From contig CM082583.2 in the NCBI GenBank assembly GCA_040954595.2, positions 6,756,849-6,820,848 on the forward strand: a stretch of DNA of 64,000 nt. Reading direction: 5' to 3'. The position numbers and the translations under genes were made by a program. This DNA is from Balanoglossus misakiensis (lineage: Eukaryota; Animalia; Hemichordata). Each line of letters starts with the position of its first letter. Positions within the stretch are counted from its first letter, which is position 1. Shown in pieces: positions 1-63,269 of this stretch. The notes under the pieces are model-generated. The model was not told the DNA's origin, did no database searches, and saw only the letters and a program-made list of their open reading frames with translations.

Positions 1-129
1 TTAATTGTTCTGGGCTTTGGTAACGGGACATATTATGGATATAGCATACAGTGTCTGTCTGACAAATACTTTCAACGACACAGTAATAATGCATCATTTT
101 AAATACATTATTCTGCTACCAAGATGGCT

Positions 130-2385
130 TTACAGACTCTTGTTTACTGACTTTTTTGTGGCAACGGTACACACCTTCTTGTGAGTGGGGCGATGGGCCT
201 TCTGGCAAGGTACGCTGCAGTAGCGTACCAGTTTACATGGACACTGCTTTAGTTGTTTGCTATCCGGACCTTGACAGTCCGGGTTGTGACATACCTCAGT
301 AAAATATGTGTCATGCATAACTTCCAATTGTTTTTTTGTATGCCTATCCTCAGCATCAAAGAATGCAAGACGGTTTCTTTCAGCTTTGACACCTTGCTGA
401 TAGTGATAAAAGGCAAGCTGCTTGCATTCCTTTACAACATAGCAATAAGCGAGATCATAGTGGACATAAGCATACATTCGTTCACATTGAGGGGTTACTC
501 TCAAATACTTTTTGTACAGATTAATGGCAGATTCCTTATCACCAAGATAACGTTTCTCTTCAGCAACTCCACGTAGGGCACCATTATCATCATCCACAAT
601 TCCCTCCATGGCATAAGCCTTCTGAAAACAGTCCAATGCCCGATGATGTTGATCAGTATATGAATATGTGACAGCAAGCAGCAGCTCGTAGATATGGTGT
701 AGACTTTGTCGCCTTACATCATCTTTGTCATGACTTAAATTCTCAATCTTGTGGGCTAAGATTTCATTTTCACGAATTGTATCTGAATCTGTAATGTGGG
801 TAGTCAACGGCAGTGTGCGTACAAGGAAAATATGGGACAGGTAATCCTGCTCATTGGCAGAGACTGCATTTATAGCTACCTGACGAAAGTCTGTCATTCC
901 CCTAGTACGAATGGGGATCTCAAAATTCCGACACACGGTATTCTCGGTGATGTAACCTTTTGCAACAAGATGGACACCTTCTAACTGCTTCTCTGGATCG
1001 GATTCATTTGTCAAGAGTTCGAAACCATCTTTGAAGTATTTGTGTGCCTTTAAGAACCTCATTGCTGTTGGCGAGTCAGGATACCGCAGAAACATTCCCT
1101 CTTGGTAAATTTTAAGATTTTTAAATCTGATATCTTCCTTACTTACTCTCTTCGCTTCTTCCATGATTTTTTTTATTTGCCCTAACTTGATACTTTTTGA
1201 ACATGCTTCAGAAAAAGCCTGACATAATTTGTCTCTCTCATTATTTTGTCGAAAGACAAGTTCGAAAAAATCTGACTCACCAGAATCATCAACATATTTG
1301 TGATCGCCAGCCATGCCTGAGTCATGCACCCCTCTGTTACTTGCTGGGGGAGGGGAATTTTCATTATTTGAAGCTGTATTTACACTACTGGTCGCTGTTT
1401 CTTCTTTTGGAATGTTTTTTAAGAGTCTCTTTGCTTCAGCATCACCCTTTTCTGCTGCTTTAATAAGCCAAACCTTTGCTATCTCAACATCAACCTTAGA
1501 TTTGGATTTGTCTTGAAGGAAGAGCTTTCCATACTCTCTTTCTGCATCCACAAATCCCTCTTCTGCTGCAGCTTGAAGTTGTTCGACTGCCTTGTCACGA
1601 TCTGGTGCTCCACTTAGGTTCTCGTTAGTACTGTACATTTTCCAGAGTTCAAATCTTGCCCTACCTGGTTCAACTTGTACAATGCCAAAACATTTCGAAG
1701 CATTTGAAATTAATCTCCCATACTGGAGACTTGCACTTTGATCTTCAGTAACTTCACCTGCAGCAAGTCTATACCACTTTTCAGCTTCCTCTAGATTCAC
1801 CTCTACTTGGTCACCTATGCCATATCTATAAATTCCAGCAAGGTTGAACTGAGCCGAGGGATTTCCTAATTCAGCAGCTCTCTGGTAAAGGGGGAATGCT
1901 TTCAAAGGATTTGTGGGCTGAGGGTTCCCTGGTAAATTCTCAAACAAAAGTGCAAGGTCATTTAAATCGCTGGCAAAGCAATCGCCACTTTCGACGATAT
2001 TTAGCAGTAGATGTTTTGCTTTGTACAAGTCTTTCTTCAAACCCATCTTTCCGTAAGTATAGCATAAACTGGCATAACGCATGGCATCAACGTCTCCACT
2101 GTTTGCAGCCTTTAACACCCCTTCCATGCTGCCATACTGACTGGATTTTTTCTTTAGATACTGATTAAAATAATCTTCTCCTGCACAGTTTTTCCTTTCC
2201 ATTTTGCTCTAAAAAAAAGTAAATATGTTGTGTTAGTGGGAGCTAGTTTGAGGACTTCTTTGAGTTCATTTGATCAACGCTGAATTTTCACAGTACTGAT
2301 CAAACCATGGTAGACAGTGCTAGAAGCCCACACACCCACCCACTGCCTATTTCAATTTAAGCTGTGCCGAACTTCGACTCACCAT
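130..2385 (-). CDS. SEL1-like repeat / TPR / C-terminal MYND zinc finger protein (about 693 aa); coding exons 2385-2383 (ATG only) and 2208-130
   Basis: 690-aa ORF. SEL1-type repeats (YQRAAELGNPSAQFNLAGIYRYGIG, EAEKWYRLAA, AKVWLIKAAEKGDAEA), TPR-like helices (HHRALDCFQKAY, AINLYKKYL) and a MYND pattern CHNPDC..CPCKLVRYCSVPCQKAHRPTHKKVC. Upstream GCACCATG|GTGAGT donor and T-rich AG acceptor at 2210-2209 join in frame (M-S-K-M-E-R). Confidence 0.88.
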
Positions 2386-2769
2386 GGTGCACCAGTACGA
2401 CCCTCGCTTATCCAATAAGACGTATTTCCCACACTTGTTAGGATCTCAAGACTTTAAGACAGCGTTGCCTGTTTCGTACAGCTTTCTAATCGTTCGGCGA
2501 TTGAGCAATGGCGTCGACCGTCGCACTCAATGTTAGGGACCGTCCCAATGATGTCATTTCGAGGAAAATGTGACGCATGTAGTCCGCAGAAATGTGTCAA
2601 GTGGTTTGTACGTATTGTCATTGCTATGCCACATACGCCCCCTCCCACGGACCCGGACAAGGTCCTCATAACAACCATCTGCATAGACGCGGTCGTAGGC
2701 AGTCAGTCATGTCATTTTGTGTGCTTTGAACGAACTTCAAGGCGTTCAAATGTCATGGTACACATTTAG
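2386..2769. promoter_or_regulatory. Putative bidirectional promoter and 5' leaders of the two MYND genes
   Basis: CpG-rich patch with CCAAT near 2412. It lies between the minus-strand start codon (2385) and a plus-strand donor TAG|GTGAGT at 2769/2770. Confidence 0.5.
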
Positions 2770-3891
2770 GTGAGTTATAATCAAAATTTTAAATAGTATA
2801 GGCCTAGTACCAATTCTGGACAAATTTGAAAAATCCGAAAGCTTTATATTATTAGCCTTCATGTGTGTTTTTTCCCCGCTCTGCTTTTACAAAACAAAAC
2901 AGAACACGAAGGTTGAGTTCTAGACTAATCAGCCACTGCCAGTAGGCTTATTGTACTGGTAAAATCCCTCCAATGACAGGTATACTACGATATTTTAACC
3001 AGTTCACGACGTAACATATGTGCACGATTGCCAGCGAGTACATAGTTCAACTAGTCAAAATTGTGTACGTGCCGGAGGAGTTTGGGGACAATGTAGACTA
3101 GCCCACTAGTCGCTTGGTGATTTTTGAATCTCAATACTTTTTGTGTTTGCTGTGTTTTTTTGTCTTAATATATGATAATTATTGTTATATTGTATATGCC
3201 TATTTAGCAAAAATTCGAATATATACTTAACAGTTTATATAGTGAAATGGGCCCGGAGCACGATTATTTAATGTAAAATCATTCCATACCAGTGACCAGC
3301 TAGGAGAGTGATTTGATTTATCATGTTACTAAATGTTATTACGACAACCACCCCATAAGCTTACTGGAGATCGTCAGCTCTCACGCTGAGTGGCACTGTC
3401 ACGAGTTGCGCATTTTAGTTTGTTATTAATTATTAATGAAATCTGACCTCACAGTAATGGCGTGATTATAAATTTAAATACCAAAGCATTGTTCACACTG
3501 TTCAGGGATACCTAGTCTGGTCACCATTTTTACCACATTGCTGCTCTGTACTGCACGAAAACTGTCAGGTGCGAGCTATTGTAAATATGGCTATCATTTT
3601 TGACATGGTGCTCAGGCTAGCTTCGAAGTCGGCGTTTTTGCCCAACAGAATATGAGAAAGGCTCATCTCATTGACAATCACAGGCGAAACAATACGTTGA
3701 ATTTCAATGGTCAGTCATACGGTCCTAATAGACCAAAGAAAACGTCTGAATTTATTGACACAAGCCACGGTATTATAATGTAATAGCATTTCAATCAAGC
3801 GAGTTTATATATACCACATCGTGTAATGAAATTGTTTCTCCCTAACAGATTCATCATATGTACTATTGAGTAGTGGATCACTTAATTCAAT

Positions 3892-4000
3892 ATGGCTATA
3901 CCTGGAAACAAAATAATTGTCCAGATGCCAGACACAGGCCTTAAAGAAGTGAAACCTATATTGTTGGATTTAGCAGCCAGAGAGATTGGTGATGTATCAG
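3892..4000 (+). CDS. Candidate first coding exon A of the STAND gene (MAIPGNK...IGDVS)
   Basis: Acceptor CTAACAG at 3848, in-frame upstream stop, ATG in AATATGG context, phase-1 donor CAG|GTAACA matching the phase-1 acceptor at 4698. Confidence 0.55.
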
Positions 4001-7000
4001 GTAACAATTATTTCACATGAATTACAGATGACATAATAAATGAAAAGTCATGACACTTGAGGCCCATAATACAAAAAATAGAATGCGAATTGCATTTTTC
4101 TACAAAACTTAAAACCACTTGCTGATATAAAGTTCCATGTGTGAAACTCTGGCTGTTCTACGTCACAGCATGGAGCTACGTACACCAGGCACAGACACGC
4201 GCGTACGCGCCTATATCATCAAATCTGTGATTAGGTCTACGGAACTACTTTTGCGTCTTCAGAGTGATGTAAACAAACAAAATGGCGACCGCTCACTGTA
4301 CGTCTGCCCATGGTCTGTCCGATCCGTGGGTGGGTTTTAAAGATCTGGAAATGTGAAAAAAAATGACCTCCGAATAAACATTATATTTTCGTCAACCGGT
4401 AATATAGGATGGCCGTAGCCGAGTACACGTTGAGGGCAGCTCAGTTCCGTCAGTTCCATAGTAGTTTCATAATTTTATGGGTATTTTAAAAATGTTTTCC
4501 TGTTTTTTTGTTTACTTTTTTATTTTCCGTGGCAGCGTGGCAGGGCTGTGTGTCTTTACGGCGATCGATGCCCTGCCACGCAGAGCTAAGTCAGTAAATA
4601 GACCCTAGAGAAAGGGTCTACGGTCAGTTCATGTGTCCGGCTGGCTGGTGCGACACAACATGTGGTGTTACAATTTAAAATATATTTTTTCTTTCCAGAT
4701 TTGTTGTCACCTTCCCTGGCTCTTGATCAATCAGAAAAAAGGTGGCTTGTTGTTGGTGTCTGTATGAATAAAATAATCAATCCCCTGCTGAGAGACCATG
4801 TTGATTCAAAATTAAAGAACCTCTACACTTCGTTGCAAGCTTCTCATAGTATTGACAAGCAAGATTTTCAACATCACCTGAAGAAATATCCATCTAAACA
4901 TGGCAAAATGCTTATCTATGGAAACATCAACAACAACAAGAAAAACACAACGGCATTCAATTACAATATTTGCAGCCACATCGACTTTGCCAAGTTATTT
5001 CTTCTATCGAACTTGGCAAAGTTCACAGCATTTGATGAAACTTGTGATGCATCAGCTTTGCTTGGGCTGATATCTAACATAGGAGGGAAATGCTTTGACG
5101 CCATCCTGAGGAAAGAAGCAGAGACCATGCGGTCTAAAATCCGTAATCCCTGGGCTCACTGCAATTTCGCTGACTGGGATGAGCTGAAATACATGCAAAG
5201 TTTTCAAACCATGGATTCAGTTATCCAAAATCTACAATTACCAAAGGACAAAGAGAGTGCTGCGATAACAGAATTAAGAGACTGGGAAACCAAAGGTAAG
5301 TAGCCCATCCATTATTAGTTTGACATTTCCTTTGCCATTGTCTTCTTTTTTGGTCAAAAAATCTTATCTATAAAAAATACTTGCCCAACTCTTAAATTCG
5401 AAGCGGGTGTGTGGGGATGATCTGCCAACTGCGGCTAATAACCAGGTGATATTAGGAAATACCTTAAATCTGCTTTTTTCCATCCTCTGATTGGTGATAT
5501 ACAATGCGGTAGGCCAGTAAATTGTCTCTGGAAAATATATTTCGGTCATCCTAAACAGTCTAAATCATGAAATTAATAGCTACAATACCAAACACTTTTT
5601 ATGCAACTTTGTGTTTCATTTCAGGCTTAAAAATCATTCTTGGTTCATGTACAGATGTAAAAATCTTGACAGAACTTAAAGAAGAAACTTCAGCTCTTGC
5701 AAAGTATGTTTTGACGACACAGAGCATTCAGCAGGATGAAGTCAGATCAATCACAGAGCATCTTGAAATTCTTGACAAACAAATGGAAAGGTTACAGATA
5801 AGTATACAAACTTCAGTGCAAAGACCTGAGTTGGAAGATGTTAGAAAAGATGTTAAAGACTTGTCTCTTGACCAAGAACAACTTGAGGGTGAAGTCAGGC
5901 AAATTCAAAAGCAGTTTGAAGAAGATTTTGCCAATCTGACCGAAAGAGTTGATGAAGTTTATAGAAAGCATGATAAACTCTGTGAAGAGGTTAAGACACT
6001 GAAAACAGGGCCTAACAAAAGGCTTTACGGAGAGTCTGAGACTTTCATGACTCCCAGTAGAGTTCCCCATTTCACTGGCAGAACGAGTGAGCTAAGACAG
6101 CTTAAAGACAAGTTAGCTGCAATGAATGAACATAGAATTATGTCAATATGTGGGCTTGGGGGTTGTGGGAAGACATCATTAGCAATTGAGTACTCATGGT
6201 TGTTTCAGTCATTTTATCCAGGAGGAGTATTTTGGATATCTGCAGAAAGCAATGATACATTTGCCAATTCTGTCAATCAACTCTCTCGCGAAGTCGGAAT
6301 TTCAGGGAAAGATTTCACTGAAATTTACGAACAAATTTTAAATTGGCTAGCAACACTGGAGTCGAGATGGCTTCTTGTGATGGACAATATGGACCAGTAT
6401 GAAGTTTCTGACAACATCATGAAAATGCTACAAGAACCATGGCGCAGAAATTGCAAAGGGCATTTGCTAGTAACAACACGGAGAGATGTGGTTGAGATGA
6501 CTGAGATCTGCCCTGCAGCATTGAAATCTGAAGACTGTCTCAAAATCCACTGTTTGAGCATTGATGAAAGTGTTAGCTTCATGTTTCGGCGAACAGAGAA
6601 GGGAACATTTGAAGATCAAGAGGCAGTCACCACCCTTGCAACAGAACTTGGAGGCCTCCCACTTGCACTGGAACAGGCTGCAGCATATATCAAGAGACTA
6701 AACTGTTCATTCGCAGAATACTTGGAACAGTTTCGAATTCAGCGATTGAAACTGCTGAAAAAAAGAATAACATCAGCATCAAGTATGTCTAAAGAGAGAC
6801 TAACAGTGAGTACAACATGGTCAATGAACTTTGAATATGTAGCTGAAATGTCGGAAGAAGAGGGATACGGCAATGCTGCGGCTTTCATCATGGAAGTCTC
6901 AGCATTTTTATCACCAGACGACATTCCAATACAAGCTATAAACAGTGGATCTCCTGCAGTCAGCGACAACGATGTTGAGGAAACTCTGAACTTACCACTT

Positions 7001-9751
7001 GGAAGAAAACAGATTCTGGAAATTCTGACCAGATTCTCCCTATTTCAGAGTTATGGTAAAGAAACCTACAGTGTACATAGATTAGTTCAGGAAGTAATCA
7101 GAGGCCAGCTTGATAGGGAGACTACGAGTGAGAGACTTACAACGGGGATTCGTATGCTGCACAAGGCAATCAAAGAAACACCAACTCCAACAAAGATACT
7201 ATACAGCGGCAGAAGCACTGGGACAGCAAATGACCTAAGTAGGTTACACCTTTGGGGGAAACTCGCTAGTCAAATCTGTACACTGACAGAACACATAGAG
7301 AAGTTTGTCAATGACAAAAATGCTTCTGCTGGTGATTACATCAATTTAGAAATGGCCACCATTTTGCACGAGGCTTCGATCTACCATAGTGTCAACAGGA
7401 GACATGCCAAGGCACTGGATCTTCAGAACAAGAAAACTGGAATATTGGCAGCGGTGCATGATCTGGATAACTCAATCCTGAGTGAGCTGACAACAATTAA
7501 AATACCCCTTAATATAAGAGATCAGTCCAAAATCCAGAATTCAATGAAGTCTGCAGAAGAAATAGGTCTTGGGAAGAAGACAGCTGGAATTGGAATTGGA
7601 ATATCTGAAAACAAAACCAGTGTTGATGATCTTCGCGAACATGGAAACAACTCATTCAAAGATGGAAACCTACACGACGCCATTAAGTGGTACACAAATG
7701 CAATTTGTATGAATGAAAGTGATCCACGTCTGTTCAGCAACAGAAGTTTGTGCTATCTGAAACTGAATGATCTTGAAAGAGCTTTAAAAGATGCAGATCA
7801 GAGTATTGCACTTGACAGAGGCCAATACAAACCACACGCCCGGAGAGCATATGCTCTCTATGGACTTGCAAAGCAGACGTCTCCAGGAAGTAAGAAGATA
7901 TTTCTTGAGTGTTCAGGTCATGCCGCAGCTTCAACAGCTGCAAATCTGCATCCACCCTGTAATTTAGAATACCAAATGAAAATCGATTATCCTATTCTGG
8001 TTTTTAAAGAGATAAGAAATGACAACCAATTACTTAAAGCACTTATGAGTAAATTCACACAGCCTAAAACTACCCTTCTTCTCCATCCAGGAGAGTACAG
8101 ATTTGCTCTTGCAAGTTATCAAGATGTTCAGATAGTTGGCATAAAGAAAGGTGTCACCCTGAATTGCTTTCCAGAACGTCTTACATTACCAGACGACGTT
8201 GAACCATTTAATTGTCATTTTGAAAATGTAACCTTTACGGGGGTTTCACTCCTCTTCAAATCAAAGGGTCAGACGTGTTCATTCTATGATTGTACCTTTT
8301 CTACTGGCATTCCGGCTTGTGATGACTTCCCAAATTGTTTTGGTGGTCCTGGTTGTAGAAGTCCGAGCATCTGCTCGGAGGAAAAGCCTAAGGATCTAGT
8401 GGGATACTTTAACCATTCGTTTAGGAGTAAGTTACATGGTACAGGTGGCATTCCAGGTCTACAGATTTGCTCCAGCAGTACTGCCTATGTGAACCACTGT
8501 TCATTTGACCGTTGTGGTGGAGGAGGTGTGTTAGTGGATGGCAAAGATAGCGTAGCCTATCTGCACCATTGTATTGTCAGGCGAAACAGACAAGCAGGTC
8601 TTGAAGTTCGAAATCAAGGAAGAATGTACGTAGAAAATTGTGAAATTTATGGCAATCAGCTTCATGGAATTGGTGTGGGTCCAGAAGCTGAATACTGTTA
8701 TATTAATGATAACAGAATTACTGGAAACCATAAAGAAGGCATTTGGATAAATGGGTCATCTGTTATAATATTGAACAACGACATAGGTCAGAATTATGCA
8801 GGTGGAATATCTGTTGATCATCTCAATAAAGTGGCAGTGAAAGGCAACAGGATTTATGACAATTTCCACTGGGGACTTCTCATTCAAGGAGGCTCATCAG
8901 CATTTGTTCAGGCAAATGAAATATTCAGCAACAAATGTGGAGGAATACAGATTCGTCACAATGGAACCGCAAGAGTGTTTATTGATGCCAATACTGTAAG
9001 AGCACACACTGGACCAGCATTGTACATCACACCAGATGATGAATTAGTACAACAAAACCGGCCACTGGTAACCGAACATCTTAGAAAAGATTCAAGCTTA
9101 TTTGATGGTCGGTCGTATGACATCCAGAGCGCTTTTCAAAACTCATCACCACCAATCCTGACCAACAGGAATACAATTCTTCAAAACGACATGGGACAAC
9201 AACATCCCAAGGAGAAGAGCAAGTCGTTATTCCAAGTATGTTCTTATTGTTATGGGAGGCCTTCGGGCACGGGCAAACTACTGAGATGCAGTGATTGTAA
9301 GCACGCCCATTACTGTAGTGTGAAATGCTCCAAGTTATATTGGCCAAGGCATAAAAACTTCTGTCGCTTATTGCAAGGGCACAATTTCGTCACTGTTGAA
9401 ATACCTCGTGTAATGGATAATGAGGTTTCAATTCGCTCTATCAACCCAGGACTTGAAAGTGTTGGTAATACACCTCCCCCCAAAAGGGGGGAAGTATTTA
9501 TTGTTAAAATACAAGGAGGGATTGATCTCGTGACATATAATCCAAATATCCCCGTTTGTGTCTATGACCGCAGTATGGTCATTGATTTCTTCTTTGTTCA
9601 TCCTGAGATCTATCAATTGGTAATGGAATGTGGAGTTCTGGGACAGACCATGTTTTCTTCCAAGAAAATTTTCTGCTATGCAAGTTATGCAGAAAAGGGG
9701 AGGAGTATTCGTATTCAGACAAATGTGTTGGCGCCATTCCAGAAGTGGTAG
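3892..9751 (+). CDS. NLR-like STAND NTPase: HEPN-like domain, coiled coil, NB-ARC, TPR, right-handed beta-helix, MYND finger, C-terminal domain (about 1610 aa); exons 3892-4000 (or 4282-4312), 4699-5295, 5625-9751
   Basis: Walker A GLGGCGKT, Walker B WLLVMDN, LLVTTRR, GGLPLALEQAAAYI and VHRLVQ motifs. TPR LREHGNNSF..FSNRSLCYLKL; GxxI/N-rich PbH1-like repeats; MYND CSYC..CSDC..YCSVKC..HKNFC. All junctions are phase 1 with canonical GT/AG. Confidence 0.88.
4282..4312 (+). CDS. Candidate alternative first coding exon B of the STAND gene (MATAHCTSAH)
   Basis: AAAATGGCG start (YY1-like) after a CpG-rich patch at 4140-4290; phase-1 donor G|GTCTGT (weak). Confidence 0.4.
4699..5295 (+). CDS. STAND gene exon encoding the HEPN-like domain
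   Basis: TTTCCAG acceptor, AAG|GTAAGT donor; helical domain with DASALL and RNPWAH (5142-5159). Confidence 0.85.
5625..9751 (+). CDS. STAND gene terminal 4.1-kb exon (coiled coil, NB-ARC, TPR, beta-helix, MYND)
   Basis: TTTCAG acceptor at 5624; uninterrupted ORF to TAG at 9751. Confidence 0.92.
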
Positions 9752-10101
9752 CCCTTTTGTGATAGTGGCACAGTATGGTACAAAGTGGTCGTGATACATG
9801 CTACCTCCCATTATATTGGGAGCATATGTATCAGATGTTAAGTCAGTAAGAGTAATTTTACCCATGTACGTACCCCCACATTCCTAGTTGAAAAATCCAG
9901 TACTGGTCCTTACAAAGGTTATTCGCACACCACACTTTGTATTTTTGGTACAATACACAACATTGATTGTGTGGAAACTCATACCGATCCTCCTTTGGTT
10001 TCAAACCACATCACTTGCTTTCCGCCATGGTATCGTCATTGATGTACCGAAAACACTTATTTCTATTAAGTTGCAGGTTTAAGAAAATTAGGTTCATGCT
10101 G

Positions 10102-10107
10102 AATAAA
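10102..10107 (+). terminator. Candidate polyadenylation signal of the STAND gene
   Basis: AATAAA about 350 nt after the stop codon. Confidence 0.35.
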
Positions 10108-11824
10108 GGCCACAAAATTATAATTTGGCATACCTCCTAGTCTCAACTCTCAAAAATTATGTCTACCACACGCAACCCACAAGCTCACATTCTAATATAA
10201 GGGTCCCCTGTGTATTCTTGTGTATTTAAGCTTTCCTTTTTGGATGAAATTAGAGAGTAGTTTCAGATGTGACTATAGAAAACTCTTTCGGAAATAATGT
10301 ATGTACAGTTTGTATACTTAACTTGACCAATCCAAGTATTATCAGTACTATGGGTCTTTTCTAGAAGAGATTCTACAAAAGACATGTGCCACCTATGCAA
10401 ATTTGACCATCGTTACCATGAACAATTCCAGTGTAGCCACTCACAAATTTTCAGTGGGTGCCCTTTTACCTTTAATTGAAGAAACATGCCTACTTTGCTG
10501 AGGGATTTGTCGACTTTCAAAAATCAAGTTATATTTGACGAAGAATTAGTAATTCAATTTCTTAAACCGTTGTATGTTTTATCCCATAGGTCATATTTTC
10601 CTTTTGGATAAGTTTAATACACACCACAGTTTGAGAATTGTATGATTTTACTTCAACATGCTCTTATAGTTTATGAGAATGTTAATTCATGAAACTAGTA
10701 AGATTAATTAAAACCCATATCTGTTGACTTGGATATTACTATAGTTTCTGTTTCTTTATTCAAAATCGGGCCAACATGTTTCCAATCCCCACAACCCATT
10801 TTCTTTCGTTTCTTGCCATCACAAGCTTTTAAATTTTATCGACAACAATATAGGCCTAGGCCTGATTGGGCCTAGCTGTGCTGAGCCAAATTAATTTCGA
10901 TTTGACGAGTTTTTGGAGGGGGGGGGGCTAGAGAATGTATATTTATTTATAACAGTTTTATATGTATACATGCCAACATTTTGTTTAAAAGGGTATTTTT
11001 GACGGCCGAATTTTCACCAGTTCCGATCAAGTTTTATATAGGTTGGAGGGGGTATGAATGCACTGACAAATTCTGACATTTAAGAAACATTTGCAAAAAC
11101 ACTAGAGATCCCTTGCGGTTCGTCATTGCTTTTGGTTATTCAGTTATGATTTTCTTCTTGAAATTAATCTCATACCACTTGAGTCCGTGGCATATACTTT
11201 CATTGACTAGTGCGCCCTGAACTTGTCCATTTTATGCCACGCGTTCCGCTACCACGTGTTGAACAACTGGTCGCCAGAGGGCGTAACACCAACTCCCCCA
11301 AATTTCCCCCTCATCTAAACGACTTTCTACGTACGGTTCCCTCACAATTGACTAATAATATAGTCTAAACATACGCTGCCAGTGTACGACATGTGCTGCC
11401 TGAAGTGCTTGCGTGCCGGAAAGGTAATAAACATGTAATTGCGTCAACGTAGCGTTAGCTGAGTAGATGTAGTACTACAGTAGTAGCAGACGAACTGGAA
11501 GCTTATCAGGTTGAGTGGTTATTGGTATAGGCAGCTCGATACATTTCATTGGTCACTTTGAAGTGCTGGGGGATTTTTACGATATAGTGTCGATGTCGTA
11601 GGTAGTTGTCCGGGTCCTACGCGTACAAACCTGCAACATGCAGACGGAGAAGATTATGTGGTCGTCGAACGACCAAATTGCAGTGTGCCGAATCTATGAT
11701 TGATGGATTCTGAAGGACCTGGAAATCAGTGCCCGCCATGGAAAGTTTACAACTGGAGGCTTAGCTTAATGAGTCAGAGTGTTACTTGCAAGTACAATGG
11801 AAAGGAATCCCTGATCGATGCAAA

Positions 11825-12297
11825 ATGCCAATATCCGAAGACAATGCTTGTGAAATCTTAAGTCTTCTCCGAGAGGAGCAGAAGTCTGTCACAGTAAACA
11901 AGAAGAAGACCGGGAGAGCTTCTTGTGAGTTGCGATGTATTAATACCCTGATTTCGTATTTGAATGTTGTGGTTTCAAAGAGCAGGGACATTGCAGAGGA
12001 AACGCGAACTAAAACACAACGAACAGTATCGACCAAAGACCATTATGGAATACTAGTGGTCTCTTTTCGAGGCTGCCCAAAAAGTCTTGAAGGTTTCGGA
12101 TTGCAGGTGAAGGAAGGCGCCTTTTTTGAGGGAAAACGGAAAGAAACGAATACCACCGTCGGACCTTTTGGTGGTGTTTACGTTGGGAGTATCTCGACTG
12201 AAAGCCACGTGCACAAAGATGGGAGGTTGAAAGTTAACGACGAAGTTATTGTAATAAACGGACAAGTTCTTGAGAGATGTACCACAGCACAAGGAAG
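11825..12297 (+). CDS. PDZD2: PDZD2-like exon 1 (N-terminus, most of PDZ1)
   Basis: [30 protein letters not shown]; donor AG|GTGGGT. Confidence 0.85.
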
Positions 12298-33200: not shown

Positions 33201-36200
33201 TTTCAGTCGTGGCGACCAGATCCTTGCCGTTAATGGTCACAGCCTTGTTAATGTGTCGTTAACCGAAGCTCACCGAGTCTACGGCGCACTGCAACCAGGA
33301 CAGGTCCATCTGCAAATGATGGCGGATCCAAACCCTCAGGTACGGCATACACAGCTCTGTCAAAATCGTCAATGATTTACATTCAGTTCTGAATCAGGAG
33401 AGAGTGCAGTTGTAGTTTATTGACACCATTAGTGTATTTTCAAAAGGAAGGCATCACTGTCTATGTTATTTTGTTACTTTTTGTTTCGTGAGAAGTTCTT
33501 TTAAGTTTCAGTAAAACCCCAAAGACACTTGCATGGTGTTGAAAGCTAGGAGCATTAATTGCTCTCTAGTTGGTAGACTTACCAGTGATGTTTCATCTCC
33601 AAATGTCATTTCGTTGTCTGAATATAAAGTTTGAGCAGCATACGCTTTGTAAGTCTACTCACAGACTGTCTATGGTTTACTCAGTTATAGAAATTGTTAC
33701 AAGGAAATACTCCAAGTCATCAATTTTCAAGAATTTATTTCTATCTCCTCCCATCAACATGTTGCAGTTGTTCACAGAGATTTCTCTCATGTCATTTAAA
33801 TTTCTGCTTTTTTCAGGTTTTCAATGACAATTCATCTACGGCTGAAGTCAGAGGTCTTACACCATCACCTCACCCAGACAATGAAATGAATACCCCTCCA
33901 CAGGTACCAGATCAAGGTGTGTAGCGTTCCTCTTTTGAGAAGGATATACCCCACAAAGTTTAATGACAAACTGTTAAATGTGAGGATTTTCTTCATGACA
34001 AATATCGCTCCATAAAGATGACAGTATATGCTTCCCTATAATGTTTGGTTTCATTGAAAGGCGAATTGTTCAATAAATTGTCTGGAGATGAAATGGTACC
34101 GTAATGTTGTCAGGGTGTTTTTCCAGAGTAAATCAAAAAAAGTTTTTTTTATTGAACAATGGCTACTTTTTCCCTTGACAGATGAAACAGTCATAAGAAC
34201 AAGTTCACCAAGTCTTCTCAAGTCGAATTTGATTCAGTCACAGGTATGTACATGTGTGTGGGTTTCTGCAGAGAACTTCATCATTGTACATGAACAGTAT
34301 ATTGCTTTTACCATGTGATCATTCTAGAGTTACAGCCGAAATTATGAAAGGTCGCCGATTCAATATGTGATCTAGACGTCCTGTGTGCACTGAACACACG
34401 ATGTGTTTATCTAACACAAACAACAGAACCTCTCATAAAAGAGATGCGGTATCATTAGACTAATTACAGATGGTAGTCTGGAAACACGCTCCCCCTCAGA
34501 GAGAGTTGTTTACTTGGGTACACTCTCAACATAAAGCGTATACACTTTGAGATTAAACTTTGACATCCGTGTTGAGAGTGTACCCAAGTAAACAACTCTC
34601 TCTGAGGGGGAGCGTGTTTCCAGACTACCATCTGTAATTAGTCTAATGATACCGCATCTCTTTTATGAGAGGTTCTGTTGTTTGTGTTAGATAAACACAT
34701 CGTGTGTTCAGTGCACACAGGACGTCTAGATCACATATTGAATCGGCGACCTTTCATAATTTCGGCTGTATCAGTTAGTGTTCACATTGCTGAGATTATC
34801 TGTTACATGCTTTCTTCTTCGTTATAAATTTATGCAGCCTGTGCAATCAGTTAAACGTGTCAGATGGCTTCTACCGGTATGTTACGAGTTACGACATAAT
34901 TATCACCCAGCATGCATTTCAACAACTAGACCCGATTTTTATTCAAATCTTCCCAGCTTGCATTGATGTCCCAAGGAATGTGAGAGGTCGTTGAACCCCT
35001 CTTTCAAGTACAGCATGATAATTACCTTCATCCATGCATGCATGAGCACTTTTTGTAGTCTGCACCACGAAAATTAGAATTTGTGACAAACAGTTGCTCA
35101 AGGAATCATTTGAATTGACTGTTTTTTAAGAGCAAAGCAAGAATTAAAAAAAAACTTAAGGTGACACAGCAAAATCTTTAGATAACTGAGCTAAATTTCC
35201 AAATTCAACCAACCATTTTAATCAGAAGCTGGTACTTTCTTATCTATATCACAGCGGCCAATTTCGAAAACTTCACTTCATATTTTCTGGTTGAGTTTCC
35301 ATTGTACATGTACATGAATGTGAATTACACTTCACCTTGTTTGAACAATGCATGGTATTCCCAGCTGGGTGTAACCTGTCTCTATTGATATCCGTTCCCA
35401 TACTTGTCTATGGAGCTATTCTCTGGCGAAATCTCCTATCTACAAATATTCACCCTTTTGTTGTCTTTTACCTCTTTCAACTCCCATGTTATTTTAGTCC
35501 ACTGTAATCCCGTCAACATCTTCACACACTACAAAACTCAATCTCGTGGAGGGCTATGGGTGAAAGCTCTTGTAGTTTGAAAAAAATCTTCAAAAATCAA
35601 ATTTTTTACTGGTTTGTGTTTCCATAACAACTGCCAATGTCAGTCATAACTGATTTAGTCGTGTGATGCCTGTAATGTGCACACATTTCTGTGGACGTGC
35701 TGACCGATGGTAATATGTAATGGCTGTCTTTTATCAAAGAATAAACAAGATCAAAATCTGCCATTTATCAGATTCTAAAAAAACACAATATTATCGATGG
35801 TGCAATTTGTTACTTTTCATTGATTTTGTACATTGAAGTCAGATTCGGTGACCCTTCTTTGGGAAAAAGTCTTGAAACTGTAGAAAGAGAAATAACCTCT
35901 TTACATTGCTTTTGGATTGTCACAGTTCACAGGGCAAAGGTTCAGTAAATTAGATTTGTTGATTATATTTTGCTGTTTTTATCTTATTGAGGAAGTAGAA
36001 TTTTGGTTATCGCAGTTGACATGGTATATAATAGCTTGTGTAGTATGTTGTTTTTGCTTTATCATGACATTTTGCTGGATTTTCTGTTCATTTAGGACTA
36101 CCCCAGTACTGATTCAGAGCTGGCACAAATCAATGCCGACACGTCCAATCAGAGTCCATCCGTAGCTGTCAATCAGTCATCTCCAGCCAATCAGGTGCCA

Positions 36201-39200
36201 AGTCTCTCAGGATCACAGAAAGGATACTTCAGCAGTTCTGAAACCAGCGGGAGTGTGGAAGATGGAAAGAGGATCGACCCGGAGAAGCCGGAGTTCCTTG
36301 GAAGTGGAACGTATAGCAGCGGGAATGACGGATCTGGTTGGGAGCCTGGATATTTGCCGTCGGATGCCAGCACAGAAAACAGCGAAGACGAAGGAATAGA
36401 TCAGGAAAAGCCCCAAAGGAGCCTTTCCAGCAGTGGGTCTGGCAGAAGCACACCAGCTTCCTGTGCCAGCGGGTCTGGTAGGAGTACGCCGGCATCTTGT
36501 GCCAGCAATAAAAGTGACGTCAGTCTAGATTTGGCTGCTCAGTACGCAAGACAACTTAGTGCAATGGACGACAAAGTCAGTGATGATGACGGTGGTGGTG
36601 ATGATGATGTAACAGAAACTGACGAGTTTAGGCCGGTAGCGCATTTCAACGACGGTACAATCTCCACCAACGCCTCCACTTTGATGTCTCTTGGGGCGTC
36701 GTCGCACGAAGACAAAGTGATCAACCAGGGACCCATTGCCATCCTGGAACTGAAGCGGGATGAAGGTGAGAGGTTAGGAATGGGGCTCAAGATCAATGGC
36801 GAGCGCGGCAGTCCGGCGGTCGTCGATTCGGTTTTCGTGTCCTCGGTGACCCCGAACGGACCGGCCGACAGAGCGGAGGGAGGGCAGACTGGACTGACGG
36901 TGGGCGACGAGATACTTAATGTGAATGGGCATAACATCAAAGAACTGTGCTACGCTGAGGTGGTGAAACTCTTCCAGGATCTTCCTTTGTACTCTCAAAT
37001 CATATTAGCGCGGGGGGAGATGGTGCTGGAGGAAACGTTAGATCAAAATGGAGGAACGTTCGATCAGAATGAAGAAACGTTAGATCGGACCGAATCGTAC
37101 AGATCGTGGACGGGAACAGAGTCTCTTGAACAAACTATGGATGACGCTGACATTCAGGAAATCGTTTCCCCGGATGAAGGACAAGAAAGTCAAAGTTATG
37201 TGGAAAGTCTAGAGGAACAGGAACAGTGGGCCAAAGTGGAGGAAAAGCTGATAGAATCCGTCAATTCTCAGGAAAACACACCGTTGGATTGTGTCAGAAC
37301 ACCATTGAGTACGATGGAAGAATTGGAATGGCAAAAAGTGGACACCTCACCTAGAGCAAAGACATCAGACTTTCCAACACCAGAAGGATTTGAGATCGTT
37401 GAATGTGTCTTAAATAAACCTGCAGATGCAGTATTAGGACTTTGTATTGTCTCTAGCAAACCCCCAACAGATGGCTACGTTCAGGTTGGTATACTTTTCA
37501 TGAAAGTTAATTGAGCTTTTTTTGTAAGTGTTACTGTTTTGTTAATGTGTATAAGCTGCCACTCAGCAATGGTACATCACAAAACCTAGAGCTGAACCGA
37601 CCTTTCTTTGATACCATTGACCTTGTCTGGCTTCATCTGACCTTGAATGAACTGATCTCATGAAACAGTCATGTACCTTGACCTGACTTCGTTTGACCTA
37701 TATCGGTGCCTTGACCTGATCTAACCTCACTTGAGCCGATTGCTACCTCAAACTGACCCCATCTGACCCGACTGAACCTGACCCGAACAAATTGACCTGA
37801 TTCAGACAAAAAATAATCGATGCAGTGGAATGAGAATCCACTTTCTCCTCTTCATAAATAAGTATTTGTTATCCTTCCCTAATACTTTTTGGATAATCTA
37901 CTACAGGTTAGGCGCATACTGGCCGACAGTGTTTGCTCAAGGGACCCCAAAGTTCAAGTTGGAGATAGACTGGTCTCTATCAACGGACATGCGCTTTACA
38001 ACTCAACCATGACTAATGCTTTAGAACTACTTAAACAGAACACTGAACAGGTGAAAATTGTTTTACTGAGAGACACAGGGACCGGCAAACACAACGTCCC
38101 AGAAGACTCAAGCAGCCAAAGCAGTCTGCAGGACAAGGAAGGAACCGTGTCTGCTAGTCCGTCCCTGGAGCTGAACTTTGATGACGATGATGATGAAGAA
38201 GATATAGGAGATCTTTTGATGCTAGAGACAGAGGTTGATGATGAGAATATGGAGGAGAAAGAAGAGGAGGAGGAGGAGAGAGGGGACGAAGTCGTGAAAA
38301 GAAAAGAGGAGGCACTTGAAGAAGTAGGCCATGAAAATATTGAAAGAGAAGAACCTGTTTGTTTGATTCCAACACAGGCAACCCCAGTAAACACCGAGAA
38401 AGTGGAGGAAGCTGGAGATATTGACTTTGAAGCAGCAAACGAGAATTGGGATGTGCCGGTAACAGATATCGATGCGTTGTTGGCAGCTGATGAAGATATT
38501 GCACAACCGTCGTCATCACCGAGGCCGAAGAGTCCCGTGAAGGATGATTTAGACCAGGGTAGTGTTTCTGTATCTGCGAGCAGTTCAAGATCGGAAAGTC
38601 CAGTGAAAGTTCTGGATGAATTCGAGGATGGTGATGACGATGATATCTCAGCCCCGCCTCCTCTACCGGATGCTCCTGCACCGCCCCTGCCAGTAAGTCT
38701 GCCGCCGATGCTGTCTTCCGATGTGGACCCGGCAGAAGAGATCGCGGTGTCTGACATCTTGGAGGCCTTGTCTGATGAGACCCCAGCACCTCCGGATGCG
38801 TTTGGAACCGATGCTGTGGTGGACGGGACTGAATCTGTGCCATGCGCCGAGATCGCCGGCCGGGTATCGCCATCTGTGGAAACGGAACTGATGCTGTCCG
38901 ATGCGCAGGATGAACGGAAGACGCCTTTGAATGTTGAAGAAGTCCCGTTTGAAGTTGATGGTACGGTGCAAACAACGGAGCGTGGAAACCCACCACCATC
39001 CTTGCTGGATGAAACAATTCCCCCTTTGTCGGTTGAAGTGGCACCATTATTGACCGATGGAACGACACCATCACAGCTGAGTGAAGAGACTTCAGCTGTG
39101 AAAACTGAGGCAATAGCACCTTCAGCAGGCAGTGTGGAACCATCTTTGTTAGAAGATTTAATAACCCCGTCCCCACCAGATGAAGTGAAGCGATCTACAT

Positions 39201-42200
39201 CAGGTGAGCTGTCAATATCTGCACCCAGTGAAAAAGAAGTAGAGCCATCAAGAAAAGAAACGACGCCATCTCTACCAATTGACCTGCTTTTACAAATTGG
39301 CCAACCGCCAGAACTACCTGCCGTCCCTCCGCCACCGCTGCCCTCCGACTCCCTTCCAGAAGACGTGCCTCCTCCAGCACCGACAGAAGTGACCCACCGT
39401 GACCACGCCCCTGTCGACGCCCCTCCTGCAACTCCTCCCTCCCAAACAAAACAACCCTCCAGCAGTAACATTCCGCCAGTCCAACCGACCAAGCCTAGGT
39501 TTGTCATAAAGAAACCGTTGATGTCACCTCCCAGTCTGAAATCCAAGACATCTCCGCCCGTCCCACTGAAACCCAAACTGGCCGCTGCCAACAGAGGGAG
39601 TCTCGGGGCAGTGACACCCATTCACCCTTCAACACCTGTGTCGGCCATCAGCCCGCAGCAGTCATCACCCCCACCATCATCCAGCCCCCGACACTCTCCG
39701 CCGTCATCGCCCAAGAGCAGCCCCAACCAGAACGAAGTTTACCCCCGGGGCAGGTCCCCTCTGCGACTGTCCCCAGATGAACACATGAAACAGATTCCGA
39801 TCGGAGGAACCAAGCCGTGGACGGAGTTCGCCAAATCCAGTGGCAGGCTGATCGAAAGCAAAGTTGTAGCCAAGTAAGTGTAATGCGCAGCCATTGCATT
39901 CACTCACGTAATTGCCACAGAATTAATTTGAGTAAGTCACTCAGAAAAGTTGACAAACCAGTCACCCCAGGCTGGATGAGATTCACACTTATTTGAAGTA
40001 AAATGTTAAACATTTGTAACTTTTTTTGATGATTGGGCACAAGTGAACTGTGCATGATCTATGAGTGAGCTCACCAGACCGCATTACCCAAAAGGATGTG
40101 TACACATAAATGTTTTTGTTGTTGTGCTCCTGGTATTCATCCTGTGAATTATTAGTTGTTTTTTTTGTCTGGAACTCTATTGGTGAATTCGTGAGTGTCT
40201 TCAACCATGTGAAAACATGTCTGTATCTACGTTAAATTTTGGTAATTTGTTTGCCATAGGTACAAGAGATCTGAGGAGGGGCCATTCCTCATTCAACTCC
40301 TGAAGGGTTTTCGTGAACTTGGCATCAAGGTCTCGCTGGACGGGAGTGGTCGCACCGTAGTCACTGAATTGTCACCGGGCGGGGCCGCCGTGAGAGATGG
40401 TCATATCAGGTAAGCGCCTGACCTTCTGTTTAGAGTTTCACTCCAATTTGCAGCAAATGTGAACTGGAGTCGGGGAAAACAACACCCAGGAGGCAAGTGT
40501 GAAAATTTACCTGTGCAGCTGTGTCACACTTGGCAGAATCTCTATGGTAACAGATACAGGTTAATGTACAGGTTTTTTGACCTTATGATCCACAGAGCTA
40601 TAAGCCTGTGCATGGATGAATATATTATTACATTTTCCAGCTTTCTGCTCTTAAGTCATCCCAGGTCATTGAAAACCAACTGTGTATTTGTGAAGTGGCG
40701 TATCTCGTAAGATGCATTTGTTGGTAACTCAGTAAACCTGTCTGAACGACAAAGACAATTGAGAATTTGTCTTTGCCCTGGTCCCCCCCCCCCCCCCCAA
40801 TTTTTGGGGCTCTCTGTGATTATGGGGACAACAGTGTCCTGGCTGATCAACAATATTCTTGTAGGTGTTTTCTCTCTGCTGAACGTGCGGTGAGGACCAT
40901 AAAATGCAAGGAATGTAAAAGTTGAAAGATCAATGCAGGTTTGAATAGTTCTGATGTGTCCATGTCGACATCGCTGAGAGCCACCTTAGGGACACACCTG
41001 GTTGGCCAGAGGTGATTTTTTCTTAAATAGAACGTGAGACCATGACGAAGGACATCCTGGACGTCAGAGATCTCAATTTTCAGCTTGTTGGTTTTGCTGA
41101 CAGTCATGGCAATGATGCACTCGGAGAGAGAATGCAGTAGCCGTTCCCAACAGCTGTGCAAAAAACTCAAATGCTGGATTTAATTATCATGCTGTCCAGG
41201 TGAAAGCCTTCGTGAAACTTGTGAAATGTGGCTAATAAAAACTGATATCGGGGGCCGTTGTATTAAAGGGGGACTATGGTACTGCGTCATGGCATTAAAA
41301 GTAGACAATGCCGGTTAACTTCAACCCCGCATTGTTTGCTGTCTGCCGCATTGTTCATGAGGTCCCACCAGGCACATAAATCAGTGTGTTGTTCAACTGT
41401 AAACAAGGGACACACCTAGAAGTGTCTGTATGTGACCCTCACTTCACCAGCCGGCCGGCCGTAAGAGTTAATCAACCTAAAGGCATGTGGTTTTAAAGCT
41501 TCTCTGGTGAATTCCACAGGTGACTTTGCTTGTCGTGTCCTGAAAACCTAATTCTGCAATTTCAAATATGTTGTTGTTTGTTTTTGTTTTTGGGTGGGGC
41601 TATCATCATCCATACCAATGTAGTGTGTGCCACTAAGGAAAGGGGGAAGGAGGAGGGGAGGTGCGTTGTTTAGGAAAAACCCAGAAGCTCACCAGGCTAT
41701 CAACTGCATAAATGAAATCGTAGCAGCCTGATCCAATAAAACAAGATTAGAATCGTCTGCGCTTGCATGATGAGTCCAAAGATTCATATCACACCCTTTT
41801 CCAGACAAACAGGTACATGTACATTAATTTGTTGAAGTTGGAAGTGACATAGTCAAACTTTTATATGCTCAGGATATATGTTCCTGAACTGACTTGCCAA
41901 GAATAACGTTCATCTGAAATCTGGTATTTCATTCTTCGGGACTCCTTGAGTACCCTAATCCAGCCAATCCCCATATTGTTGATCGTAACATTGTTCTCGC
42001 TTAAAGTGGTGTGTTTTTCTTTTCCTGTCTGTGGTCAATGATGGCTAATTAGTGGGTCTTTTCATTCACTGATCTTTACACCAGAGTCAGTGGTGTGTGA
42101 TGGTAAAATCACAGTTCATGCTTTGCAGCACAGTGTTTGTTTCATCTCGGTCAAAATATTTTCACAAAGTCGGATTGCGGTATAATAAAAGCAAGCCAGA

Positions 42201-48200: not shown

Positions 48201-51200
48201 AGTTTAAAATAACCACGACAACAAAAGTTTGTCCTGTTTGCCTGGTTTCTCACAATTAATACTCGGTTGTGTTGACGCAAGTGTGGCGTGACGTTCTCAG
48301 TGTGTGCTGAATGCTGGTGATAAACAACCCAATCTTTCAATTTTTAAACCAGCCCTTCTACGTCAGTGGTCTTCCCAAAAACAGAGGTGGAAAGAATTGT
48401 CACCATTATTCCAGTGTCTGTAACCAACTTTGCCCTCTGAAAACTGTGGAGTTCACCATAGTGTGTGGAGGGACCCTGAGTTAACTAATTATGGGAATAT
48501 CCCAGTGATTTACCACCTGCATTATTTTGCTGCAGGTGATGCATGGATGTGTAACTGCTCTTATGTTTATCAAAAAATAAAAAAAATATCAAGGAAGTAC
48601 GTGACTGAATGCTTTTTACTAGCAAGATTGACATCCTGTCAACAGATCCTGTACTAATTATACCCTTGACCGAATGGTCTACTAATAACTTAGACTCTCT
48701 CACAGCCCCTCTCGCCGTCCATGCAGGCTTATGGTCTGATTGTATGTGTGCCCGGCGAGGTTCGCTACACAACACCAAACGGTGCTTCTCCCTTGCCAAA
48801 CGGTTGAGAGCGCGTCAGTGAAGAGCCTTGTAGCGAACTGTGGGCTGTGAGAGAGTCTACTAATAACTAAGGCTCCATGTGACATCTTTGATTTAATTCC
48901 TGAAAATAATTTCTGTCATTTTTTTCACGTCACAGATAAACCTCTAGTTCAAGAGACTGAACCAGAAATTACACACAAAATGCCTCCAGTCCGTGTTCCA
49001 CCACCTGTGCCTCCGAAGCCGCCATCGCCGTTGCGGAAGACAGCGCCCCCACTCCCCGACAAGCCACCTCCATCTGACGTGGAGTCATTCTACGTGGTTG
49101 ACCCAACTTCGAAAGAATCCACCCGTGATAACAGTGTGGATGCTGCATCTTTCTCCTCGGAAGACCCGGGCTCACCGATCAAACCGCCGGTGGGCTTCAG
49201 CGACGAGGACAGCCAGAGCACCGCGTCGGTTTCCGCGAGCACGGGCGACGCGGACGGTTTCTGGACGGAGGAGAGCAATAACCAGGGGCCGAAAGATGGA
49301 GCCCCGTATCACTATCACCAGAAGTCGGAATCCTTGGACAGTGATTCTACGCCGCTGTCGCCCAGAATGCCCCCCGACGGACACGAGTTCCCCGACCGGA
49401 GATGTCCCAGCGCGTCGCCCCCACCAGTTCCACCCGACATAGGCAAGACCGACGACAGAAGCGTGCCATCCCCAGCGGATATCCAAGTCGGCCACGTGAA
49501 ACAAGAAAAGAATAACAATGCCAGTATTTCTGAGCCCACTGGTGATCACCTGGTCACGCACCAACCAGACGCGTTCCATGTTTCCCCTGGTGAGCATACA
49601 CCGGACACTGCAACAACTGTTCGAACGTCACCGGGAAATCGATCCCAAGACTCTGACACGGAGATGGACGGAAGAGCACCTTGGGCAGAGAAACGGACAT
49701 TACCGACAACCCCGCCAAGAAAGGCACTCTTTCACCCTCACACCGGGCTGTCCAGAACGAAAAAGAAAGACGACGACCCCAGTGACCTCTCCGTGAAGGA
49801 CAAGGCATCCATATTTGGGAACGTTGTCATGCGACGGAAATTGCCCTCCATGCCTCACTTCAGAAAATCCAGGAACCTGGAAGAGGAGGACGTCAGCTCC
49901 GGCGCCAGTAGCCCGGAATCGAACGTGAAACCCAAACACAAGACTGTTATACAACGGTTGCCACTCAATCCTCACTTGCAGCCGAAGAGTCCCAGCTGGG
50001 AGTCGAAACCGCCCGAGCCCAAACCAAAACCAGCACCCAAACCCAAGTCAAGAATATATGAACGCCTTAGGCAAAGGGACGGTGTGTTCTACGCAACACC
50101 TACGTACAGCGTAACGGCGGAAACAAATGACCAGGAAATTGCTGAGGAACCTGTACCTCAAAGCCAAGAGAGTTCACAGATTTTGCCAAGTACTCCGCCA
50201 CCACAACCTCCACCTGCTGTGCCGGATAAAGAGAAAACAGTTCACACGGCTCTTATTACTGAAATCACGAATGATTTTGATCCGGATTCCGGCCTCTACG
50301 AAACTGAATCTTATGACTCCACTGAGCGTGAAACTTCCTTGCATGCTTATATTCCGTATGAAACTCCAACCCGTGATGGGCCTGGTCATGATGAAAGCCA
50401 GACACCCGATTCTCACTATGCAACCCCAGCCAGTGTAGGTGCTCCCGTCATCTCTCCGAGCTCGGATTTGTCGCAGTATGAAACTCCACCTCCTCCCCCT
50501 CCAGAATTTGAGACGCCGCCACCTGTGATGCAGGACCTGCAGGACGAAGAAGCAGCCACGCTCGAGAAAATAGTTCACAGCGAGATGCCCGCAGCCGAGG
50601 AAGTCAGGCACGAGTCTGTGCACCCAGTAGATATAGCTGACCAGTCCGCCGACACCAGTATGAGTGAACAGTCCTCTGTCACAGACGAGCAGCCGCAGAA
50701 TGAAGACGACAGTAAGCCAGACACAAGTGTTAGCGAAAGCACCTCCGAGGACGGCAGGGTTGAAGTGGTGGAAGAAGATGACACCAGAGTCAGCGGCGTG
50801 ACTTCAGAAAGTGAGGATCACCAAGGAAGTGTTGTGGCAGAGATGGTCGAAGTAGACCAAGAAAGGAGAGATTCCTTGTCGAGTGACTCGAGCAGCACGG
50901 CAACTTTAGAAGACCATGAGAACTTAGCCACGCCAGAGTCAATGTTATCTCAACAAGATGTGGAGATTGTGGTGCCTGATGTGGTCGATATCGTCTGTGG
51001 CGTTGACGCCAAGTATGCTGTCCCTAAGGATGACGAGATCAAAGCTATACCCGCGGATGATGAAATTGCAGCGCCCTCAACAGGCATCGTGGAGACAGTG
51101 GAGAGTCCACTGGAAAGTGTTCCACCACCACTTCCCATTGCTCTCGTTCCAGCTGAAGAGTTCCTACCTGAGACTGTTGATGTGGAAGTTTCCGCTGCTG

Positions 51201-62549: not shown

Positions 62550-63269
<720 letters not shown>

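Follow-up and report, generated by a model that had tools for sequence, protein, structure and literature searches.

An acorn-worm NB-ARC protein with a HEPN-type head and a chaperone-clamp, beta-helix and MYND tail: a candidate switched ribonuclease of cell-autonomous immunity

A 64,000-nucleotide stretch of the genome of the acorn worm Balanoglossus misakiensis (contig CM082583.2, positions 6,756,849 to 6,820,848; "the window" below) carries, at positions 3892-9751 of its forward strand, a three-exon gene that joins an N-terminal HEPN-type domain to an NB-ARC nucleotide switch of the STAND class and to a tail of TPR, beta-helix, MYND zinc finger and a further, small domain. The architecture, the intact NTPase motifs and the conservation of R185, H190 and D153 in the protein are seen directly. 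By analogy with known systems, we put at roughly 55% the probability that the protein is a ribonuclease (RNase) that is switched on by oligomerisation and serves cell-autonomous immunity in the manner of SAMD9 or the bacterial Avs proteins.

Protein searches scored 7,990 candidates, 441 of them matching at E<=0.001; the best 120 of these 441, to which all counts out of 120 below refer, have E values below 1e-206 throughout, so that the match is not due to chance. For the gene model, 24 combinations of boundaries were tried, and GT-AG sites at both introns were obtained only with 3892-4000, 4699-5295 and 5625-9751, giving one open frame of 1,610 amino acids (aa) with an in-frame TAA 9 nt upstream of the ATG. 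Coding exon 1 (3892-4000) encodes a 36-aa N-terminal leader ending in a phase-1 donor, with its GT at 4001, and across 31 aa shares 45% identity with the N-terminal end of a Ptychodera flava protein (P0124). Exon 2 (4699-5295) encodes the head, a HEPN domain (aa 38-235) according to profile evidence. The phase-1 intron that follows it (5296-5624) splits a Gly codon, and its position is conserved: the same Gly codon is split as G/GT...AG/G in the same phase in two other animal loci (L001 and L002), 37 of 99 HEPN matches end within 45 aa of the intron Gly, and 62 of the 120 listed homologues start at the exon-3 boundary. The joining of 5295 to 5625, on which the original prediction depended, is thus supported by homologues, which run continuously across it. 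A pyrimidine-rich acceptor-like site also lies at 3830-3848 on the same strand, its AG 43 nt upstream of the ATG, and suggests a non-coding upstream exon.

Were the HEPN exon not joined to the NB-ARC exon in this species, the locus would hold a head-less STAND protein beside a separate HEPN gene, or would be decaying. Two annotations weigh against the fusion in this way: in the closest relative, P. flava, two genes are annotated, with products of 352 and 1,216 aa, and in Saccoglossus the gene model is without the head. However, the 352-aa P. flava model (P0124) is continuous across both junctions and matches exon 1 as well, and its break falls later than the 5295-5625 join, in the coiled coil. 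Moreover, canonical splice sites produce a single open frame here, the intron phase is conserved, and intronless or spliced open reading frames (ORFs) bear the full fusion, head and tail standing in one frame in a 1,622-aa ORF on a 5,070-base contig (P0013) and in an intronless eukaryotic locus (L033). We consider unjoined exons highly improbable. The two neighbouring P. flava models, XP_070541956 (P0124) and XP_070541948-51 (P0004), may reflect a natural split, a pseudogene or an assembly error.

Membership of the head in the HEPN superfamily is supported by profile homology and by its motif. This motif, R-N-x-W-x-H (RNPWAH at 5142-5159; R185, N186, W188, H190), had been noticed in the original prediction as R-x4-H and is a predicted RNase site. 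It fits the HEPN consensus R-phi-xxx-H, in which the active site is formed by dimerisation (TAMALE preprint). The whole motif is kept in all 29 full-length homologues, and R and H together in 116 of the 125 alignment rows covering it. Asp153 (5046-5048), invariant in 27 of 27 homologues and present in 136 of 149 rows, is a candidate third active-site residue and, judged from spacing and not from alignment, a candidate equivalent of CXorf38 D134. Mean pairwise identity is 51% for the HEPN domain versus 49% for the NTPase core.

In Pfam, the exon-2 product reaches HEPN_Swt1 at E 0.01, below the cut-off, and the homologue heads match HEPN_Swt1 in 30 of 76 cases, DUF4559 in 21 of 76 and HEPN_DZIP3 in 3 of 76 (the last at E<=0.05); in ESM the heads cluster at 0.97. 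That the 4699-5295 product would prove to be a HEPN domain was borne out by profile comparison: hhalign aligned the head end to end with a protein, L004, that itself matches DUF4559 at E 4.9e-26 (probability 96.7, E 3.5e-10), placing RNPWAH on RNHWAH of the DUF4559 HEPN. The fold search did not add to this; the AF2 model of the head is helical (pLDDT 96), but Foldseek against the PDB gave no match at E<=0.001 for this model or for that of the last domain, and PDB sequence searches with either found nothing significant. The Cys-rich insert (Zn ribbon) of L004 has no counterpart in the acorn-worm head and the protein (P0001) has no PF15112 match in Pfam, which together argue that the head is a sister group of CXorf38/DUF4559 rather than a member; PF18738 (DZIP3/hRUL138-like HEPN) was likewise not matched in Pfam. 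At the L004 locus (890-4099), a genuine DUF4559 HEPN with its Zn ribbon is joined to an NTPase of the same clade, and no intron follows the HEPN. Prediction of a complex of two head copies scored 0.12 (mark 0.32), a value that gives no verdict on dimerisation.

Instead of cutting RNA, a HEPN head of this kind could bind RNA or nucleotides, or serve as a dimerising adaptor, the protein then signalling through partners as an ordinary NLR does. Swt1-family HEPNs, the best Pfam match and a top fold match of the head (neither above threshold), are described as inactive in eukaryotes (PMC3710099), and in the literature found no activity was shown for any member of the CXorf38 branch. Yet the inactive Swt1 HEPNs have lost the motif, whereas in the present family R, N, H and D153 have been retained all the way from cnidarians to hemichordates, and we judge a non-catalytic head to be decidedly unlikely.

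The head is found on a variety of other proteins. A Pfam scan of 38 long head-bearing proteins, with the best five families taken per protein, gave as its partners NB-ARC-type (9), nSTAND3 (6), ankyrin (10, three of them named nSTAND3 by UniRef), NACHT (3), NPHP3-type (2), Roc-COR (2), AIG1 (1), kinase plus RNase 2-5A (1), beta-helix/MYND (1) and RRM (1) regions, with none in two proteins. Most of the partners are therefore nucleotide switches or the repeat sensors that go with them. In two amphioxus proteins 243 of 331 N-terminal residues are shared, after which one continues as NB-ARC/beta-helix/MYND and the other as NACHT-LRR, indicating that heads have been swapped. Such mobility would be expected of an effector that needs pairing. 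Among individual cases, the same HEPN subfamily occurs in P0215, P0161, P0179, P0126 and P0247, with the motif intact in the four checked; the head accompanies kinase plus RNase 2-5A in Xenia, lies C-terminal to Roc-COR in anemones, precedes an AIG1 GTPase in Mytilus and, with a degraded motif, follows PARP14-like RRMs.

Exon 3 opens with a post-HEPN helix and the coiled coil expected from the original prediction (5625-6052), recognised by weak coiled-coil Pfam matches and by a heptad register in which 48% of the a/d positions are hydrophobic; mean identity among homologues is 24% in this region. The NB-ARC STAND NTPase follows at 6053-7138 (PF00931, E 1e-15; DUF7779). Its motifs, as had been predicted, are all present: Walker A GLGGCGKT (6152-6175), Walker B LLVMDN (6371-6388), sensor-1 TTRR (6470-6484), GLPL, here GLPLAL (6650-6670), and the winged-helix VHR (7073-7090). 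Among the 120 listed homologues, Walker A, sensor-1 and VHR are retained in 120, Walker B in 118 and LPLAL in 116, so that the switch is motif-intact as far as its sequence can tell. The NTPase part also matches FxSxx_TPR (NF040586) at E 9e-62, below that family's cut-off. Between winged helix and TPR lies an unassigned, presumably helical region (7139-7603; 36% mean identity among homologues). The tail is made, as foreseen, of TPR, beta-helix and MYND in place of LRR or WD40 repeats; with neither LRR nor NACHT detected by Pfam, the protein is not a canonical animal NLR.

The original prediction treated the entire tail as a sensor. The right-handed beta-helix (8009-9073; PF13229, E 5e-23), which has a conserved Cys/Gly-rich insert, stands as a candidate for this role. 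In three of four close-paralogue clusters it is the least or near-least conserved folded part, its N-terminal half being 65-77% identical versus 82-92% for the NTPase core; in the fourth cluster there is no clear gap (83 versus 87%). This comparison of identities, which is not a selection test, hints that the N-terminal half is a variable sensor. A catalytic role for the beta-helix, raised by an AlgG-like match at E 0.004, finds no support in these data other than the shared repeat.

The TPR, on the other hand, is a predicted Hop-type chaperone clamp and may therefore not sense pathogens. It consists of three repeats (7616-7882) with a two-carboxylate clamp, R906, N910, N941, K971 and R975, which align without gaps onto K8, N12, N43, K73 and R77 of Hop TPR1, the residues of the Hop clamp. 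The top PDB matches of the TPR are STIP1/Hop, SPAG1, RPAP3, Tom71, PP5 and CHIP. All five positions are kept in 85 of the 120 listed homologues and the first four in 116, 120, 118 and 120 (K and R counted together), the fifth Arg being replaced in 35, mostly by Trp. One amphioxus model (P0155) lacks the TPR and retains all else. The MYND finger (9239-9364; PF01753, E 8e-8) keeps seven Cys and one His, presumably zinc ligands, in 120 of 120 and matches the SMYD2, ETO2 and BS69 MYND folds; a PDB structure search with the tail model gave matches confined to this region. MYND fingers bind PXL peptides, and that of PHD2 binds the PXLE of the HSP90 co-chaperone p23 (PMC6916684). The peptide-contact Gln is Ser in the acorn-worm protein and Gln in 87 of the 120.

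One may thus imagine the same RNase switch acting as a guard of chaperones, triggered by lost or changed Hsp70/Hsp90 binding at the clamp TPR and MYND under heat, proteotoxic stress or pathogen hijack of chaperones, with no foreign molecule on the beta-helix. That the best solved TPR relatives are all Hsp70/Hsp90 co-chaperones, with a gap-free alignment to Hop TPR1 and near-invariance of the first four clamp positions, speaks for this, as do the anchoring of the Hsp70/Hsp90 EEVD peptide by five Hop residues (PMC3105404), the binding of p23 by a MYND finger and a bacterial NLR that senses DnaJ perturbation (PMC13581612). However, the fifth clamp Arg is often lost, P0155 dispenses with the TPR, the MYND contact Gln is Ser here, and many paralogues with variable beta-helices fit many ligands better than a single host chaperone. 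A chaperone trigger is, in our view, unlikely.

After the MYND finger lies a domain of about 120 aa that had been missed in the original prediction (9389-9751). It is an unnamed C-terminal beta domain, with the pattern FIVKIQ ... YD ... Q-x-W end; its terminal W is present in 119 of 119 listed homologues, and it has no Pfam or PHROG match. Foldseek against BFVD gave phage Zuri gp29 as the top match (E 4e-3), and hhalign of animal-only versus phage-only profiles of the domain gave a probability of 92.8 (E 4e-7). As tblastn of the animal domain against phages found nothing, and a protein search aimed at longer proteins found P. flava only, the phage link is based on comparisons of fold and profile, from which the domain is likely to be related to small phage proteins; it may also be OB-like. 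The phage proteins (L157:10502-10744, L158:1468-1701, L159:1486-1707 and L160:1354-1716) form an unnamed family of 73-120 aa with no PHROG or Pfam family, and the L159 copy sits between thymidylate synthase and pyrimidine hydroxymethylase genes. The ESM neighbours of 9368-9748 are basidiomycete MYND proteins (0.76-0.80, a lead only), and MYND plus the last domain may therefore occur in fungi too.

Homologues with the same architecture were found in cnidarians, bivalves, horseshoe crabs and amphioxus. The genera named among the 120 listed are Mytilus, Mercenaria, Mya, Ruditapes, Limulus, Tachypleus, Branchiostoma, Nematostella, Exaiptasia, Actinia, Acropora and Oculina, most named homologues having the same Pfam set. 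The top matches of the large exon among those listed are P. flava (69%) and Saccoglossus (47%), with which its product groups at 99% support in a quick NB-ARC tree, pointing to a hemichordate host. The exon-2 product is matched by 35 of the 120; the 120 include 38 NCBI gene models, and 33 of these have head and tail fused. Most of the other listed homologues are gene predictions restricted to the big exon. Neighbouring LOC numbers in Mercenaria, like the many coral table rows described below, point to an expanded family; the 64-kb window holds one copy. Animal copies at L009 and L028 are interrupted or split within the NB-ARC region, and L033 (4403-9301) is a divergent member without introns that runs the full length from HEPN to MYND but has another C-terminus, of hydrophobic character; it lies on a metagenome contig of eukaryotic appearance, next to an ORF for an ankyrin-like membrane protein. 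Locus scans from single proteins found nothing, and three scans with diverse alignments gave no usable pattern.

The ancient family, the conserved exon structure, the well-conserved tail and the single copy in the window would also suit a regulated RNase of routine RNA processing or development, like Las1 or IRE1, rather than of defence. This is very unlikely, we believe, given the tandem expansions, the head swapping (with, in Porites, a glycosyltransferase head on this tail) and the broken or split copies, which are typical traits of immune genes; so are taxon gaps, no vertebrate, insect or nematode name occurring among the 120 listed matches.

With these data in mind, we propose the following working of the predicted immune RNase, in which RNase activity, ligand and immune role are drawn by analogy. 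As in other STAND and HEPN proteins, the resting protein would be a monomer that holds ADP and inhibits itself, probably docked on Hsp70/Hsp90 by way of the clamp TPR. A foreign ligand would bind the variable beta-helix, with or without help from the MYND finger and the last domain, and nucleotide exchange would lead to oligomerisation. The coiled coil would then pair two heads, bringing two R-N-x-W-x-H motifs into one composite active site, and the paired heads would cut RNA (tRNA, rRNA, mRNA or viral RNA), halting the infected cell. The last domain, possibly OB-like, may bind nucleic acid as ligand or substrate. One may speculate further that an overlooked immune RNase family extends from cnidarians to hemichordates and arrived at the design of SAMD9 on its own: a HEPN exon invisible to Pfam was shuffled among NB-ARC, NACHT, nSTAND3, AIG1 and Roc-COR switches, an in-built Hsp70/Hsp90 clamp licenses the protein, and the phage-related, OB-like end domain is a sensor of foreign nucleic acid or an integrated decoy for a viral protein. 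This extended model is conceivable, although we hold it doubtful.

If the head is active, many marine invertebrates would possess, in addition to SAMD9, another class of STAND receptor that is self-contained and cuts RNA. Pfam-based counts of HEPN-NLRs would be too low, because the head falls under the cut-offs. Since members exist in the tractable Nematostella, Exaiptasia and amphioxus, the RNase L-like HEPN-STAND proposal of 2013 becomes directly testable. The head would also be closely related to human CXorf38, which is uncharacterised. Through the clamp TPR, a connection of heat stress or chaperones with the death of coral and bivalve cells would become open to test, and the last domain would connect an animal immune receptor with an unnamed family of phage proteins.

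In the window, the gene stands head-to-head with, and 1.7 kb from, an intronless ORF of 692 codons on the reverse strand (130-2208), whose product has Sel1 repeats and TPRs and ends with a MYND finger; no MYND gene was seen upstream in L001, L002 or L033. Downstream are a multi-exon, multi-PDZ gene (about 11700-55500, +), with very long acidic or proline-rich exons at 36096-39877 and 48851-53866, and then a GOLPH3-like exon (62850-63269, -). The former may be PDZD2/IL-16-like, and the pair would then recall the human PDZD2-GOLPH3 neighbourhood. Repeats within 1-12000 appear to be due to chance, with no element ends seen.

The original prediction knew of no characterised protein with this full architecture. 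This holds inasmuch as none was found that joins head and tail; the novelty was nevertheless over-rated, because invertebrate HEPN-STAND defence proteins and this tail are already published. Noel et al. 2023 (PMC10236652, Additional file 16) list coral genes annotated 'NB-ARC, TPR, beta-helix, Zinc finger' (OG0000334, OG0008058). Examination of all 48 places of 'helix' in that file gave 47 rows, in five corals, with NB-ARC and beta-helix, most with TPR and zinc finger; none of the 47 rows has a HEPN head, the last domain is not listed in the file, and 'helix' does not occur in the main text of the paper. The OG0000334-type genes have the same tail order as the acorn-worm protein, and many of the 47 rows have lengths of about 1,550-1,620 if the id digits represent length; the comparison is of domain order, and Acropora and Oculina proteins are among our listed matches. 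One of the 47 rows, from Porites, has a glycosyltransferase head on the same tail, and another coral model has the whole tail twice (Plob_00023269, Pver_g1524); the file also lists HEPN-NB-ARC-TPR genes. In the literature outside subscription journals, no paper was found in which head and tail are combined or the last domain is described. The concept of HEPN-STAND defence and the tail are thus in print; the assignment and the mobility of the head, the recognition of the TPR as a clamp and the phage relationship of the last domain do not appear to be.

Of known systems, the CXorf38/DUF4559 and DZIP3/hRUL138-like HEPN-STANDs of cnidarians, amphioxus and bivalves likewise carry an N-terminal HEPN with R-x4-H on a STAND NTPase, and are a proposed apoptotic or antiviral effector resembling RNase L. 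Fusions of CXorf38- and DZIP3-type HEPNs with NACHT, from cnidarians and amphioxus, were reported in 2013 with that proposal (PMC3710099), and large HEPN_DZIP3-NACHT sets have followed (PMC9646362, PMC8260672, bioRxiv 10.1101/2025.07.21.665930). The CXorf38/DUF4559 family has a Zn ribbon inserted in its HEPN (PMC3710099 Table 1), in contrast to the acorn-worm head, which in addition falls below all HEPN Pfam cut-offs; the tails of those proteins are LRR, WD40 or long TPR arrays, unlike the clamp TPR, beta-helix, MYND and new domain here. The three-repeat clamp TPR of Hop/STIP1, SPAG1, RPAP3, Tom71, PP5 and CHIP is predicted here as well, but embedded between a STAND NTPase and a beta-helix, unlike in these co-chaperones.

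SAMD9, a STAND protein that contains TPRs and an OB-fold, is a tRNase activated by viruses (PMC10246899, PMC5445408). Its nuclease consists of an AlbA-type and then a Sir2-like domain, neither of which was detected by Pfam in the acorn-worm protein, whose NTPase is of NB-ARC type, unlike that of SAMD9; a likeness of the last domain to the C-terminal OB-fold of SAMD9 is a lead only. The likeness to SAMD9 is therefore one of working mode. A PADLOC scan gave only weak coiled-coil or P-loop matches, and HEPN, beta-helix, MYND and last domain were found in none of 79 prokaryotic loci. In a quick tree, unrooted and without fungi, the animal sequences form one side of a branch with a support of 100, and we accordingly make no claim on donor or gene transfer. 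The NTPases of many prokaryotic NB-ARC proteins, among which are the NB-ARC-TPR STANDs (FxSxx_TPR-like), are 27-37% identical to that of the acorn worm, and with these proteins and the Avs systems, among the bacterial STAND sensors (covered in PMC13581612), the acorn-worm protein has in common the tripartite plan of effector, NTPase and sensor.

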